Positions 1,323 to 57,941 of a stretch of 64,000 nucleotides of DNA are shown one piece after another. The notes under the pieces were generated by a model. It did not search any database. It was not told the origin of the DNA and was given only the letters and a program-made list of their open reading frames with translations. This stretch comes from Candidatus Kerfeldbacteria bacterium. Lineage in GTDB: Bacteria; Patescibacteriota; Patescibacteriia; UBA10025; JAHIVO01. The DNA lies in assembly GCA_047946875.1 (NCBI GenBank), contig CP181398.1:1064409-1128408 (forward strand), read 5' to 3'. Position numbers and translations under genes: made by a program. Positions within the stretch are counted from its first letter, which is position 1. Every line of letters starts with the position of its first letter.

Positions 1323-3296
1323 ATGAATTTAATTATAGCAGTACAAATCTTTGTTAATAAACACAATAAAAAAATTACCATAGGTTTAGTTATTGGGTAT
1401 ATAATTTTTATTTCCCTTCTCTTAATTGCAAAATATAATGCTTTTGGATTTACCGCTCTTGATTTAGGAATATACAATCAAGTCTTTTTTAATACCACTG
1501 AAGGAAGACTCTTCGAAATGAGCATTCATCCACATTCTTATTTAGGGGATCATTTTGAATTATTTATTTTGGTCTTAATACCTCTCTATAAAATATTTGC
1601 CTCTCCGATAACGTTATTAATATTACAAACTATTTTTATTGGTTTAGCCGCGTGGCCACTATACTTAATAGCAAAACAAAAATTAAGTTCCTCCTGGTCA
1701 TTAATGGTTATTCTAATTTTTTTATTTAATCCATTAATTTTAAATTTACAGTTTTTTGAATTTCATATTTTACCATTTGCAATATTTACACTACTTTTTT
1801 CCTTTTATTTTTATTACAAAAATAAATTCACTCCTTTTTTAATTTTTATTTTAATATCAATTATCATTAGAGAAGATGTTTCTTTAGTTATAATAATGTT
1901 TGGTATACTTGCCTGGATAGACAAAAGAGATTTAAAATGGATTCTTACTCCTATCATAATCGGTGTAAGTTGGTTTATTATGGCTATGCAACTTACGGGC
2001 TATTTTAATCAATCTGGAAATTATAAATTCCTTTCAATGTATGGATGGCTAGGCAATAGTATGTCAGAAATGATAAAAAATATTTTTACTAAACCTTGGA
2101 TTTTATTAAAACAAATTTTTAGCTTCAATAACATATTGTCGGTTGTAGGTATTTTCTTGCCCCTTGCTGCGCTCCCATTATTAAAACCAAAATATTTAAT
2201 TCCATCAATTTTAGTTGGCGGTCAGTTACTACTACTTAGTGCTTCAAGTGCAATTATACTGAAGACTCATTATACTTCCCTACTATTACCTTTTATATTT
2301 ATTTCTCTTATTTTTTCTTTGAAATATTTTATTCAAACGACATCTTCAAGAAATAAATTATTTCAATTTTTTATAGAACAGAGAATATTATTCTTTGCGA
2401 TATTTTTTACAGCCATTATCTACTCCTTCTTAACGATTAGCCCTATAATTCCTGCTATTTCTAGCCTATTTAATGAAGATAAAGCCAATATAAAAGTAGC
2501 AAATGAATTAATAAAACAAGTATCAGCTAGTGAGAGCGTTATTTCAAGTTTTAAATATTTACCTAATCTTTCAGATCGTGTAAATGTATATTCTCTACAT
2601 TATGCCTTTTTTGGTAAAAAACAATTTACCGATATAGATTTTGATATCAATGTTCCAATAGATAAAGCAATAATTGATTTTAACGATTACACAATCTATT
2701 ATCTTCAATCAAAGTATTCATCAAATAAAACAGGGCTATACCCAGATGGCGCGGAAAGAATTAAAAATATTATTGCAGAACATAATCTTAAATTAACTTC
2801 TATTACAGACACTCAAGCTATCTTTACAAAAAATGCCTTAACGGATATCAAGCTTATCAATGAAAATATTTTACCAACAATAAATAATATTAATGAAAAA
2901 ATTAATGATAACTTGACGTTGCTCGCAATCAATAAATCTACAAATATTTTTAGTACTTTGCCACTTAAATTTTTCTGGCAAGTTAATAACAAAATTGAAG
3001 ATAATTATTTTATCCAACTTAGACTCACGAACAAAAATAGGGAAATTGAATATAGCAAAATATATCCAATTGGTTATGGGTTATATCCAACTAGTAGTTG
3101 GAAAAATAATATGGCTACTAACTATTGGTTTAGTCTCCCTGATAATTATTCTCTAGATACTTATCAACTCTCTTTTCAAGTCGTAAATATTATTGATGGT
3201 CGTCTAAATCTAGATGGTCAACGTTCAGCCGTAAAATCTATTTATAAATCAGAAAATATTGGTCCTGAAATTATTGTCGATTATAATAATTTATAA
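1323..3296 (+). CDS. Polytopic membrane protein, DUF2079-like (putative GT-C-type glycosyltransferase)
   Basis: Many TM helices. The N-terminal FTALDLGIYNQ…HPHSYLGDHFELFILVLIPLYKIFASPITLLILQTIF resembles the DUF2079 consensus as I recall it (fdlgifdQ…HfsPil…PlY). A large C-terminal non-membrane domain follows. Confidence 0.55.
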   Translation: MNLIIAVQIFVNKHNKKITIGLVIGYIIFISLLLIAKYNAFGFTALDLGIYNQVFFNTTEGRLFEMSIHPHSYLGDHFELFILVLIPLYKIFASPITLLILQTIFIGLAAWPLYLIAKQKLSSSWSLMVILIFLFNPLILNLQFFEFHILPFAIFTLLFSFYFYYKNKFTPFLIFILISIIIREDVSLVIIMFGILAWIDKRDLKWILTPIIIGVSWFIMAMQLTGYFNQSGNYKFLSMYGWLGNSMSEMIKNIFTKPWILLKQIFSFNNILSVVGIFLPLAALPLLKPKYLIPSILVGGQLLLLSASSAIILKTHYTSLLLPFIFISLIFSLKYFIQTTSSRNKLFQFFIEQRILFFAIFFTAIIYSFLTISPIIPAISSLFNEDKANIKVANELIKQVSASESVISSFKYLPNLSDRVNVYSLHYAFFGKKQFTDIDFDINVPIDKAIIDFNDYTIYYLQSKYSSNKTGLYPDGAERIKNIIAEHNLKLTSITDTQAIFTKNALTDIKLINENILPTINNINEKINDNLTLLAINKSTNIFSTLPLKFFWQVNNKIEDNYFIQLRLTNKNREIEYSKIYPIGYGLYPTSSWKNNMATNYWFSLPDNYSLDTYQLSFQVVNIIDGRLNLDGQRSAVKSIYKSENIGPEIIVDYNNL

Positions 3297-56014: not shown

Positions 56015-56791
56015 AGCAGCTTTGATAGTTTTTTTGACTAAGACGTCGACGGCAGCTTGTTGAAAGCTAGCAGCTATATTATCGACGGGGACGTTTTTAT
56101 TGTTAAATTGTTTTTTAACAAGATAAAGAACGGAGGTTTTCAGACCAGAAAAGCTAAAATCAAAATTATTTTGGTTTATCATTGGGCGCGGAAATTTATA
56201 ACTATAGGGATCACCCTTTTTAGCTATTTTTTGAATCATTGGACCGCCCGGATAGCCAAGTTCTAATAATTTTGCTACTTTATCAAAAGCTTCTCCAACC
56301 GCATCATCACGAGTTTGACCGATTAACTTATAATTATTATGTTTCTTTATTTCAATTAATTCTGTGTGACCTCCAGAGACAACTAAGCAAAGTGCTGGTA
56401 ATCTTAAATTTGGATTTTCATACCAATTAGCATAGATATGTCCTTCCATATGATTTAATCCTACAATTTTTTTGTTCCAGGTAACACTTAATGTTTTTGC
56501 AGTCTGTACTCCAACTCGAAGTGAGGTAATTAACCCAGGCCCTTTAGTTACCGTAATATTAGAAATATCTTTTGGTGTTATTTTTGCTTTTGTAAGAGCA
56601 GTTTCTAAGACGGGAATAATATTAACTACATGTTCTCTTGCGGCTACTTCTGGAACTACTCCGCCATATTTTTTATGAGTTTTGATCTGTGATGCTACAA
56701 CGTGTGACAGAATTTCAAAACGACCAGCCGTGGCCTTGACCACACTGATAGCTGTTTCATCACAAGAAGATTCAATTCCTAGAATTATCAT
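55769..56791 (-). CDS. tsaD: tRNA N6-adenosine threonylcarbamoyltransferase TsaD (Kae1/Gcp family)
   Basis: MIILGIESSCDETAISVV…. The metal-binding HxEGH region reads NHMEGHIY. Confidence 0.9.
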   Translation of the reverse strand: MIILGIESSCDETAISVVKATAGRFEILSHVVASQIKTHKKYGGVVPEVAAREHVVNIIPVLETALTKAKITPKDISNITVTKGPGLITSLRVGVQTAKTLSVTWNKKIVGLNHMEGHIYANWYENPNLRLPALCLVVSGGHTELIEIKKHNNYKLIGQTRDDAVGEAFDKVAKLLELGYPGGPMIQKIAKKGDPYSYKFPRPMINQNNFDFSFSGLKTSVLYLVKKQFNNKNVPVDNIAASFQQAAVDVLVKKTIKAAKKLKIKTVLLAGGVAANKPLREQLGQAVTKELPNTKYHYPPLKLCTDNATMIAIAGYHHAKQKDFSDWKKLDADPNWELVK

Positions 56792-56880
56792 ATTATTATT
56801 GTAACATAAAAGGGGCTTTTTTTATTTACTATTGACTCTCACCTATTAGCTTAATTCTACTCGTTCAAATCCTTTAGCTC

Positions 56881-56908
56881 AAAAAAGCTTATATATAGTT
56901 ATAAGCTT
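56881..56908 (-). terminator. Hairpin terminator downstream of tRNA-Glu (minus strand)
   Basis: AGCTTATA-loop-TATAAGCT, then T6 on the minus strand. Confidence 0.5.
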
Positions 56909-56929
56909 ATTTAGGTAATAAAAATGGAT

Positions 56930-57006
56930 TGGTAGCGCCAAGGGGATTCGAACCCCTGTTACCACATTGAAAGCGTGGTGTCCTGACCAAGCTAGACGAT
57001 GGCGCC
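56930..57006 (-). tRNA. tRNA-Glu (anticodon UUC), CCA encoded
   Basis: The reverse complement GGCGCCATCGTCTAGCTTGGTCAGGACACCACGCTTTCAATGTGGTAACAGGGGTTCGAATCCCCTTGGCGCTACCA folds as a cloverleaf. Anticodon loop CTTTCAA, T-loop TTCGAAT. Near-colinear with E. coli tRNA-Glu. Confidence 0.9.
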
Positions 57007-57017
57007 TTATATATTTA
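56994..57017. repeat. Left direct repeat AGACGATGGCGCCTTAT(atattta), covering the 5' end of the tRNA-Glu gene
   Basis: The 17-bp perfect core is repeated at 57313-57329, and about 20 of 21 bp match including the flank. Confidence 0.6.
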
Positions 57018-57312
57018 TTTACTCAATTAAGTTGTTTTAGTTGTTTACGAAGTAGCCCTGATTTTTTAATTTGTTGTTCCCTTTTACGAGTATCTGTTTT
57101 ATTCAAGAATTTTTCAATTTTAACTAATTTATAAGGTATATATGATTTTGATGAACTTACATTGCCATTATTATGCTCTTTGATTCTTCGATTAACATTA
57201 TTAGTACTCCCTATGTATAATCTACTATTTTTTATGCTTTTAAGAATATATACGTAATACATAATTATATTATTATCAAGCTTCCGGCATAGCCGGATCA
57301 GGCTCTGCCTGA
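57018..57312 (-). mobile_element. Mini-insertion carrying a GIY-YIG nuclease gene, bounded by ~20-bp direct repeats
   Basis: About 300 bp between the repeats. It contains only the 79-aa GIY-YIG ORF plus two short GC hairpins (CCGGC-ATA-GCCGG, TCAGGC-TCT-GCCTGA) in its 5' leader. Confidence 0.5.
57023..57262 (-). CDS. Small GIY-YIG-domain nuclease (UPF0213/YhbQ-like)
   Basis: YVYILKSIKNSRLYIGSTNNVNRRIKEHNNG matches GIY…YIG…R…E.H.G and is colinear with E. coli YhbQ ([30 protein letters not shown]). Confidence 0.8.
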   Translation of the reverse strand: MYYVYILKSIKNSRLYIGSTNNVNRRIKEHNNGNVSSSKSYIPYKLVKIEKFLNKTDTRKREQQIKKSGLLRKQLKQLN

Positions 57313-57336
57313 AGACGATGGCGCCTTATGTATATT
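57313..57336. repeat. Right direct repeat AGACGATGGCGCCTTAT(gtatatt)
   Basis: Partner of 56994..57017. Confidence 0.6.
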
Positions 57337-57375
57337 CTATGGGTTTAAAAAAATATTAACTTAAATTACATGATT

Positions 57376-57420
57376 AGTCAACCCCGCCCTGCTTAATGGG
57401 AGTGAGGTTAGCAGGCGGGG
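57376..57420. other. Isolated GC-rich stem-loop flanked by TCAACC direct repeats in the AT-rich hsp20 upstream region
   Basis: CCCCGCCCTGCT-16nt-AGCAGGCGGGG (11 bp, one bulge). GTCAACC lies immediately on both sides. Confidence 0.4.
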
Positions 57421-57491
57421 TCAACCATATTGTTTAAAAGCTATATTTATACTATAATAATTATACAAATAAATTTTATAAAAATATAATC

Positions 57492-57941
57492 ATGAGTAAA
57501 CAAATATCAACAAAAAATTCAAAAACAATCAGCAATAACTCAACAATAGACAAAGAAATTGATTTAAATAATCCTCAAAATGAGGAATGGATGGATGATG
57601 ATGATTTTTCTGGTCAGTTGGCAGTAGACGTTTATCAGACAAAAGATGACATAATAATTAAATCTACTATTGCTGGGGTAAGGACAGAAGATATTGATAT
57701 TGCAATTAATAATGATATGATCACTATTCGTGGGAAAAGAGAAAAAGAACACGAAATTATTGAAGATAATTATTTCTATCGGGAATGTTATTGGGGAGGT
57801 TTTTCCAGATCAATAATTCTTCCGGTGGATGTGAAATCTGACAAAGTAAAGGCAAATATGAAAAATGGTGTTCTTACAATATCTTTGCCTAAGGCAGATA
57901 AAGTTAACAAAGTGACTGTAGTCAAGGTTAAAGAGGAATAA
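57492..57941 (+). CDS. Hsp20/alpha-crystallin small heat-shock protein
   Basis: Alpha-crystallin domain …LAVDVYQTKDDIIIKSTIAGV…GVLTISLPKA. Confidence 0.9.
   Translation: MSKQISTKNSKTISNNSTIDKEIDLNNPQNEEWMDDDDFSGQLAVDVYQTKDDIIIKSTIAGVRTEDIDIAINNDMITIRGKREKEHEIIEDNYFYRECYWGGFSRSIILPVDVKSDKVKANMKNGVLTISLPKADKVNKVTVVKVKEE

Follow-up and report, generated by a model that had tools for sequence, protein, structure and literature searches.

A 64-kb stretch of contig CP181398.1 from a Candidatus Kerfeldbacteria bacterium (hereafter the window, whose numbering is used throughout) carries a single tRNA gene, tRNA-Glu(UUC), and between this gene and its own promoter lies a small cassette made up of a partial copy of the tRNA gene, a pair of GC hairpins that splits this copy, and an open reading frame (ORF) for a 79-aa GIY-YIG nuclease. 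The cassette is read here, with moderate confidence, as a selfish, recombination-dependent nuclease element that resides inside the transcription unit of an essential tRNA and colonises tRNA genes by partial duplication. The locus is one member of a widespread tRNA-associated nuclease-cassette architecture, for which no description was found in the literature searched.

On the minus strand, on which the cassette is read, the order of elements is the native tRNA promoter, tRNA-Glu nt 1-13, two GC hairpins, tRNA nt 14-19, a 14-nt linker, the 79-aa GIY-YIG ORF, a 16-nt spacer and the complete tRNA-Glu (Table 1), which matches the Rfam tRNA family over its full length (61.6 bits, E=8.8e-13). Two exact copies of the 17-mer AGACGATGGCGCCTTAT are present in the window (56994-57010 and 57313-57329), and no third appears even when 3 mismatches are allowed; shuffled sequences searched at up to 3 mismatches gave a mean of 0.05 matches, and two or more matches in none of 100 shuffles. 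A first-pass annotation of this DNA had already described a 17-bp core present twice and about 21 bp long with its flank, and the copies do extend to 21 nt with one mismatch (56994-57014 and 57313-57333), with the 302 nt between the two cores that it had counted. It was also right that the GIY-YIG ORF is the only one separating the copies and that its stop codon lies 16 nt from the tRNA. The repeat, which it had confined to the first 12 nt of the tRNA, spans nt 1-13 together with 4-8 nt of upstream flank; within this flank, 57007-57014 repeats the sequence upstream of the pseudo-copy in 7 of 8 nt (repeat family D1), an AT-rich match of modest significance by our own estimate (about 0.003-0.01).

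The two tight GC hairpins reported in the ORF leader are present and fold as predicted, reading TCAGGC-AGA-GCCTGA at 57298-57312 and TCCGGC-TAT-GCCGGA at 57283-57297 (minus strand). Past them the pseudo-copy resumes, so that the upstream repeat reproduces tRNA nt 1-19 together with flank and is interrupted at nt 13/14 by the 30-nt hairpin pair. The full duplicated segment measures 27 nt (56988-57014) and the hairpins lie inside its upstream copy, not beside it. A split-duplication test, in which 8 nt to the left and 6 nt to the right of an insert must be contiguous downstream, returned this arrangement in the window (L=17, insert=30, R=6) and 0 matches in the control region. The proposal that the leader partially mimics a tRNA 5' half is incomplete: the hairpins are more than a leader mimic, since mirror elements described below carry them downstream of the ORF, in all cases within the redundant tRNA fragment. 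Further copies of the repeat or the hairpin pair, which the first-pass annotation had advised looking for, were sought within the window and none was found beyond this locus, to which the hairpin motifs are likewise unique.

It had been considered that the repeat might be part of a promoter element common to many tRNA genes, which it is not. The promoter is a separate sigma-70-type TTGACT-N17-TAATAT sequence further upstream, read as the native tRNA-Glu promoter: a homologous promoter stands directly before the tRNA in a relative with an empty site (locus L096; alignment A4), and the same promoter precedes the pseudo-copy in the occupied loci L091 and L001 and in the window. It is this alignment of promoter position across the four loci that places the cassette between tRNA-Glu and its own promoter. 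No intrinsic terminator was found in a scan of the locus, the hairpins lack a T-run and are thus ruled out as terminators, and a promoter scan for an internal tRNA promoter within the cassette gave only a weak 9-of-12 match inside the ORF. Promoter, pseudo-copy, hairpins, ORF and intact tRNA would thus form one transcription unit, the captured tRNA promoter giving a single RNA in which an RNase P cut at tRNA nt 1 would part the mRNA from the tRNA.

A further GC-rich imperfect hairpin of 39 nt, CCCCGCCTGCT...AGCAGGGCGGGG (57382-57427, minus strand; RNA z -2.6, DNA z -3.3), lies directly upstream of the -35 hexamer and is flanked by GGTTGAC direct repeats, the second of which includes the TTGAC of the promoter. 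Because it is missing at the homologous position in L096, L091 and L001, it has the look of a small palindromic insertion of its own that duplicated 6-7 nt.

Table 1. Features of the tRNA-Glu locus in the window, from the intact tRNA gene to the promoter
Feature	Position	Strand	Basis
tRNA-Glu(UUC), intact, CCA encoded; functional copy, 3' of the cassette	56930-57006	-	ARAGORN, Rfam
16-nt spacer from ORF stop codon to tRNA nt 1	57007-57022	-	sequence
GIY-YIG nuclease ORF, 79 aa, UPF0213/Slx1-like, catalytic domain alone	57023-57262	-	Pfam PF01541, E=1.2e-16
AT-rich linker, 14 nt, 5' of the ATG; unconserved in related elements	57263-57276	-	comparison of the leaders of the window, L001 and L003
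Short arm AGCTTG, equal to tRNA nt 14-19; the pseudo-tRNA resumes past the hairpins	57277-57282	-	identical to 56988-56993
Adjacent GC hairpin pair, TCAGGCAGAGCCTGA + TCCGGCTATGCCGGA, 6-bp stems and 3-nt loops	57283-57312	-	splits the pseudo-tRNA at nt 13/14
Long arm, equal to tRNA-Glu nt 1-13; 5' part of the pseudo-tRNA	57313-57325	-	repeat search
Flank 5' of the pseudo-copy, ATACATAA, compared with ATATATAA at the intact tRNA	57326-57333	-	repeat family D1
Sigma-70-type promoter TTGACT-N17-TAATAT, about 20 nt upstream of the pseudo-copy	57353-57381	-	promoter scan and alignment

Distribution among relatives and in other bacteria

The closest elements share the layout of the window. L001/L002 occupy the syntenic locus with an ORF 81% identical to that of the window, and L003/L004 a different locus, beside tRNA-Glu(CUC), with an ORF 77% identical. 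In L001 an A to T change at tRNA position 7, relative to the window, is found in both copies, and in L003 the bases past the hairpins, AGCCCGGCCTA, are those of its own tRNA (AGTCCGGCCTA).

The comparison of tRNA-Glu loci across relatives that the first-pass annotation had called for was made on 67 metagenomic loci fetched via Hsp20, which was chosen as query because the divergent hsp20/tRNA-Glu arrangement is conserved; 27 of the 67 loci keep this arrangement. The insertion is absent from about 15 compact empty sites, with intergenic regions of 73-253 nt and 0 GC hairpins, including that of the closest relative found (L096, Hsp20 88% identical). Six hsp20/tRNA-Glu loci are occupied, by GIY-YIG ORFs merely 40-52% identical to that of the window, and at least three (L100, L101 and L123) hold ORF-less remnants, the sister loci of L123 (L126 and L132) being empty. 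The other GIY-YIG lineages at this same tRNA have their hairpins at nt 12, 13, 25 or 35, with a hairpin pair at nt 12 in L087 and L103 and at nt 35, in the anticodon loop, in L091 and L092, and some pseudo-copies hold two (L093) or three (L090) hairpin insertions. In L103 the hairpin pair and pseudo-copy are intact and the GIY-YIG ORF has a stop at codon 2 (ATG TAA TAC, about 2181-2190, minus strand), marking it, by its reading frame, as a decaying copy. The pseudo-copy diverges from the adjoining tRNA in L090, L092, L084, L066 and L055. Gain, loss, decay and re-invasion at one locus form the pattern that a mobile selfish element produces, and presence/absence polymorphism at a conserved target gene, here in the form of occupied, remnant and empty loci, is shared with homing genes.

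Two tRNA-Glu loci show rearrangements of the 3' end. The tRNA 3' end AAATCCCGTAGGCGCTACCA is repeated in L001 (4330-4490) about 150 nt past the intact tRNA-Glu, after GC-rich structured filler; it probably represents a remnant of the 3' type whose T-loop insert is larger, so that the L001 tRNA-Glu appears to have been invaded from both ends. L152 (2281-2420) has an intact tRNA-Glu without encoded CCA, and the hairpin-split 3' fragment behind it ends in ...GGGGGTACCA, which suggests that the gene originally ended in the split fragment and acquired its working 3' part with the insert.

Beyond these relatives, a scan of one genome per species with a profile built from 11 sequences returned more than 548 homologous loci, the best 80 of which were kept. 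A same-strand tRNA lies within 150 nt in 41 of the 80 (29 downstream, 18 upstream), an opposite-strand tRNA in 1, and the tRNA background in the far flanks is 0.09 per kb, bearing out the statement that small GIY-YIG genes cluster near tRNA genes and adding that they do so almost always on the same strand. In most loci with a downstream tRNA, the 5' part of that tRNA is repeated upstream of the ORF, with 11-42 nt exact, against 7 nt or fewer in most controls. The split-duplication test was positive, with evident GC hairpin inserts, in about 17 loci and gave almost no matches in control regions. Elements differ in how much of the tRNA they duplicate, from about 12 to more than 70 nt; the copied stretch is in every case broken by hairpins, and its outer edge usually falls at the tRNA end or a few nt off. 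The tRNA types hit are Ser, Cys, Gly, Pro, Leu, Thr and Glu, and the insertion points differ by lineage (nt 8, 12-13, 15-16, 21, 23-25, 35 and the T-loop).

A mirror, 3' form of the cassette also exists, in which an intact tRNA is followed by the ORF, a short arm, a hairpin and the tRNA 3' part up to the tRNA end. It is represented by L154, which was reached by an exact look-up of protein P0037, by L025, with three tandem units, and by L057, and ORF-less remnants of it by L086, L152 and L072. Tandem arrays are found in L062, L023 and L025. The layout common to these forms has the ORF between an intact tRNA and a partial duplicate and the hairpin always within the partial duplicate, whose short arm of 4-17 nt faces the ORF and whose long arm reaches the tRNA end, sometimes a few nt past it. 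No hairpin-split tRNA pseudo-copy with a GIY-YIG gene was described in the literature searched, a coverage that excluded most subscription journals.

A second class of homologues is tRNA-free (L010-L012, L014, L017, L018, L020, L021, L024, L027, L034, L035, L049, L050, L054, L064, L075 and L080). Upstream of the ORF, at about position 2001, these loci carry a conserved leader motif (TGTGGATAA)CCCC(G/C)ACACCTTTT, often followed by CTTCAGATCATATAAT, which is in part DnaA-box-like and forms long palindromes in some copies (L075). Exact copies of protein P0019, sought as recent copies at multiple sites, are likewise of a tRNA-free class and share a single upstream context.

In L155-L160, inverted repeats TTTACCCAGCACCACTTTCCC ... 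GGGAAAGTGGTGCTGGGTTTA lie downstream of the ORF, spanning roughly 110 nt overall; the exact 81-aa GIY-YIG protein of these loci is on 11 contigs that diverge past the inverted repeats, which suggests a recombination or assembly breakpoint. L019 (2232-2364) holds three copies of the tRNA-Ser 5' part: a hairpin-split copy, an 18-nt fragment right behind the ORF and, after 63 nt and a repeat of the native leader, the intact tRNA-Ser. This order looks like the outcome of an out-of-register insertion and suggests that the 3' end of the unit consists of a tRNA 5' fragment.

The nuclease and the hairpins

The 79-aa protein belongs by its motifs, catalytic residues and fold to the GIY-YIG superfamily and within it to the UPF0213/Slx1-like branch. 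The hallmarks of the superfamily are the GIY and YIG motifs, a catalytic Arg, a His/Tyr and a metal-binding Glu, set in an alpha/beta fold of about 70-90 aa. All of 40 homologues compared share residues Y5, Y16, G18, R26, H30 and E62. Profile searching against the PDB returned UPF0213 BH0048 (1zg2, 3e-18) and EF2693, then SLX1 (1e-8 to 2e-6) and I-TevI (1.7e-3), and the AF2 model (pLDDT 91.8) superposes best on the BH0048 and Slx1 nuclease domains (TMq about 0.7, rmsd 2-3 Å), I-TevI reaching a TMq of 0.5. Slx1, YhbQ and YazA form one family of structure-selective nucleases, within which Slx1 proper is defined by a C-terminal PHD/RING-type zinc finger and its Slx4 partner (PMC7017083). The cassette protein shares their catalytic residues and has its best sequence and fold matches among them, but the zinc finger and the Slx4 partner are absent here, the 79 aa being GIY-YIG domain throughout. 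The protein also has no DNA-binding domain. Its score against TIGR01453 (group I intron endonuclease) is 23 bits, with a cut-off of 56, and PHROGs and PADLOC gave weak partial matches only, which support neither a phage homing-endonuclease family nor a defence system. A viral origin or vehicle is unsupported, since tblastn against phage GenBank gave no match and the 14 homologues in IMG/VR are distant, with 0 adjoining a tRNA. At E<=1e-3, a library-wide search yielded 5,449 cluster representatives of what is a large family, rare in viral contigs.

Some homologues in databases, P0005, P0033 and P0046 among them, have 25-70 additional N-terminal residues, as do many matches of the library-wide search, and the extension of P0033 resembles a translated tRNA gene (...GFESLSF...). 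Gene callers may start such ORFs within the upstream tRNA or pseudo-tRNA.

Between the window ORF and those of L001 and L003, dN/dS is 0.07-0.19, indicating strong purifying selection. The hairpin pair is identical at 29-30 of 30 nt in the same two loci and 43-65% of the synonymous sites of the adjoining ORF differ, so that hairpins and protein are both under constraint, the hairpins being conserved while synonymous sites are near saturation. The pair folds with -17.2 kcal/mol as RNA (z -3.8) and with z -4.5 to -4.9 as DNA on both strands. Over 22 hairpin pairs, double (compensatory) changes occur at 11 of 12 base pairs and wobble pairs in 2 of 264 cells; full pairing in this set is by construction, because it was picked by a hairpin scan, and its informative features are the variety of stems and the lack of G-T pairs, which tend to favour pairing with a role on both strands of the DNA. 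In the 640 kb of sequence fetched, perfect double hairpins rich in GC are nearly confined to GIY-YIG leaders or tRNA-adjacent scars. Hairpin type tracks protein clade, the two being co-inherited, and the hairpins of L052 and L084, whose proteins are 70% identical, are near-identical at different positions (nt 13 and nt 35, respectively).

An Rfam scan of 56700-57600 returned the tRNA only, with no RNA family over the leader or hairpins and no intron family. As a general explanation, a 5'-untranslated element for translation or stability was ruled out, the hairpins lying downstream of the ORF in 3'-type loci. Nor is the 30-nt insert necessarily one long palindrome, which it is in L019 and is not in the window.

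Proposed route of spread and competing explanations

Under the favoured reading, the cassette and a duplicated 5' part of the tRNA would have entered between promoter and tRNA body, the truncated pseudo-copy staying on the promoter side and an intact tRNA being rebuilt downstream. We propose that, with a single transcript made from the tRNA promoter, the host would be unable to silence the ORF without losing tRNA-Glu. Spread would proceed by homologous recombination, with the tRNA sequence on both sides of the ORF acting as portable homology, whether by one crossover of the Campbell type or by a pair of them inside the tRNA repeats. Exchange in the arm at the tRNA end would rebuild the whole tRNA and leave the hairpin in the redundant copy; one in the other arm would place the hairpin in the working tRNA and should be lethal. 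Survival of the former products alone would account for the one arm at the tRNA end, both mirror forms, the duplication edge at the tRNA boundary and the tandem arrays, and deletion between short-arm repeats would leave solo hairpins, explaining the multi-hairpin pseudo-copies and the ORF-less remnants. The Slx1/UPF0213-like enzyme most likely acts on the hairpin, or on a cruciform or junction containing it, to give a recombinogenic break. The sequence of the tRNA gene is probably not what it recognises, because an intact tRNA adjoins its gene and related lineages use different positions.

Several points weigh against this scheme. The long arm in the window is just 13 nt (17-21 nt with flank), short for RecA-type recombination barring flanking synteny. 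Flank repeats are locus-specific (4-8 nt in the window, 6-9 nt in L003, about 6 nt in L091) and the short arm of L003 matches its own locus, neither of which is simply predicted by import from a foreign donor; both hint at duplication in situ. The recombination scheme does not account for the short arm, which at 4-17 nt is present in every case on the ORF side of the hairpin. Look-ups with the exact Hsp20, TsaD and GIY-YIG proteins found no empty allele in the same strain, all contigs being occupied, and thus no polymorphism inside the population. About half of the homologues lie away from tRNAs and have a different leader motif, so the protein family may also have non-selfish roles. Nuclease activity, cleavage substrate, co-transcription and the route of mobility are inferences within this scheme.

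The homologues away from tRNAs also fit a resident, non-mobile UPF0213-type nuclease with a cellular role that is co-transcribed with tRNAs and whose tRNA-like leader with its hairpins has a regulatory or processing role, such as stabilising the mRNA or autoregulation through mimicry. Proteins of the UPF0213/YhbQ/YazA type are encoded by single genes in a wide range of bacteria, purifying selection on the ORF is strong, and same-strand linkage to tRNAs agrees with co-transcription. A resident gene is nevertheless unlikely, given its patchy presence at one conserved locus among relatives, the occupation of different positions of the same tRNA by different lineages, and the existence of ORF-less remnants, a pseudogene and tandem arrays. 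In 3'-type loci the hairpin fragment is downstream of the ORF and could not be a 5' leader regulator, and the near-absence of wobble pairs argues for pairing at the DNA level.

Another, quite unlikely alternative is junction-programmed nicking, in which the pseudo-tRNA strand (DNA or RNA) would anneal to the uninterrupted strand of a tRNA gene, the two extruded hairpins and two flanking duplex arms forming a four-way junction. The Slx1-like nuclease would cut the continuous strand of the empty site, biasing repair to copy the insertion, and no sequence recognition would be needed. The Slx1-like fold without a DNA-binding domain, the usual presence of two hairpins with target-derived sequence on both sides, the strictly Watson-Crick and covarying stems, the near-identical protein and hairpin lineages at different positions (L052 and L084), and the coexistence of the nuclease with an intact tRNA gene are all in keeping with it. 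The short arm can degenerate, however, L001 having only AGC and then TT where the tRNA has CT, and that of L007 matching at only 4 nt; some lineages have a single hairpin (L038, L069 and L031), no biochemical precedent in bacteria is known, and copying of the hairpin alone into a working tRNA would be lethal. If this alternative were true, the hairpin-split pseudo-tRNA would be a targeting module that can be programmed, and the cassette a nucleic-acid-guided, structure-read selfish nuclease without a sequence-specific protein, spreading by biased gene conversion into tRNA genes. Mobile elements with a nuclease alone would then form a class of their own, not known before, with members in bacterial lineages by the thousand.

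The first-pass annotation had seen a homing-type insertion with a target duplication of about 20 bp, and this part of its account fared less well. A GIY-YIG-associated insertion at the 5' end of tRNA-Glu stands. A mini-transposon or homing element that makes a staggered cut there and leaves a simple target-site duplication of about 20 bp, with the hairpins as mere leader structure, is very unlikely, despite the 17-21 nt direct repeat on either side of the ORF, the short flank repeats peculiar to each locus in the window, L003 and L091, and the existence of empty sites. The upstream copy resumes past the hairpins (nt 14-19), which puts them inside the duplication, and a duplication that varies from about 12 to more than 70 nt with its edge at or near the tRNA end is unlike the product of a fixed cut. 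GIY-YIG homing enzymes are reported to leave mostly 2-nt overhangs (SegB study, PMC2330249). Neither a transposase nor terminal inverted repeats are present. Classical homing through a double-strand break leaves no target-site duplication, and the 79-aa protein, without a DNA-binding domain, is nearer to Slx1/UPF0213 than to I-TevI. Classical homing logic is also a poor fit because the cassette rebuilds an intact tRNA, so that the allele keeps any site within the tRNA.

Least credible is a relic, either a decayed tandem tRNA-Glu duplication or an att site left behind by an integrative element since lost, in which the GIY-YIG gene would be a passenger with no connection to it. Integrases that insert into tRNA genes typically leave direct repeats of tRNA parts, and L001 also bears a downstream 3' tRNA-Glu fragment, but the precise layout of arm, hairpin pair, short arm and ORF is found again in dozens of genomes and tRNA species that are unrelated, hairpins and ORF are inherited together, and no integrase is seen, the repeats lying merely 302 nt apart.

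Relation to known systems and significance

By analogy, the favoured selfish cassette would work most like a free-standing homing-endonuclease gene, and it also resembles integrase-borne islands that rebuild their tRNA. In SegB and I-TevI the nuclease is followed by a DNA-binding domain at the C-terminus, and cleavage takes place at a defined site of the allele lacking them. The cassette has in common with T4 SegB and I-TevI a GIY-YIG gene among or beside tRNA genes, an optional selfish insertion and a presumed break-induced recombination, but its protein is the catalytic domain only, with no extra domain of the kind to which the nuclease of homing endonucleases is fused, an intact tRNA is rebuilt beside the nuclease gene, and close phage homologues are absent. 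To our knowledge, a hairpin-split partial gene duplication does not occur in SegB/I-TevI-type systems, and none was found for them in the literature searched. SegB itself is a GIY-YIG enzyme in the T4 tRNA cluster that promotes preferred inheritance of the T4 tRNA region (PMC2330249).

Islands and prophages of tyrosine integrases likewise keep the target gene intact with a duplicated tRNA segment and are flanked by direct tRNA repeats, and the 3'-type loci L154 and L025 resemble an attL/attR pair. The cassette differs from them in an insert of about 300 nt, the duplication of the 5' end, the captured promoter and the hairpin pair in the redundant copy; repeats of the kind left by tRNA-targeting integrative elements are present, but no integrase was found within or beside the 302-nt insert. 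We know of no description of YhbQ or YazA, the nearest relatives by fold and sequence, as mobile or as flanked by hairpin-split tRNA fragments, and none was found in the literature searched.

With attC cassettes, IS200/IS605 and REP/RAYT elements, the cassette shares a short promoterless ORF with an imperfect palindrome, covarying stems and arrays behind a captured promoter. It differs in having no IntI integrase and no HUH/Y1 transposase, and its hairpins are neither at both ends nor dispersed in the genome (one copy in 64 kb). No integrase-like ORF adjoins the locus, the rest of the window not having been screened for IntI. The features of a DNA transposon or insertion sequence are also missing, the sole ORF being GIY-YIG, the palindromes one-sided and the duplication variable in length and interrupted by hairpins. 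Group I introns are mobile insertions in tRNA genes of the same phylum, some of them at position 35/36 (PMC13011429). They resemble the cassette in target and host phylum, but there is no ribozyme here and the working tRNA is uninterrupted, duplication taking the place of splicing.

The hairpin-plus-arms module offers a testable hypothesis for how a structure-selective nuclease could be aimed at a specific gene, and a practical consequence is that tRNA finders can miss the split copies. If the favoured reading is true, the cassette would add a third to the ways in which selfish elements can reside in an essential and highly conserved gene and spare the host, next to splicing (introns and inteins) and the att duplications made by integrases: a nuclease-only cassette of about 300 nt that copies a portion of a tRNA gene and captures the promoter of that gene. 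Many of the GC palindromes and stray tRNA fragments found in the genomes of Patescibacteria and other bacteria would be explained by this reading, which would also give a biological context to the large uncharacterised family of UPF0213/YhbQ-like mini GIY-YIG proteins.

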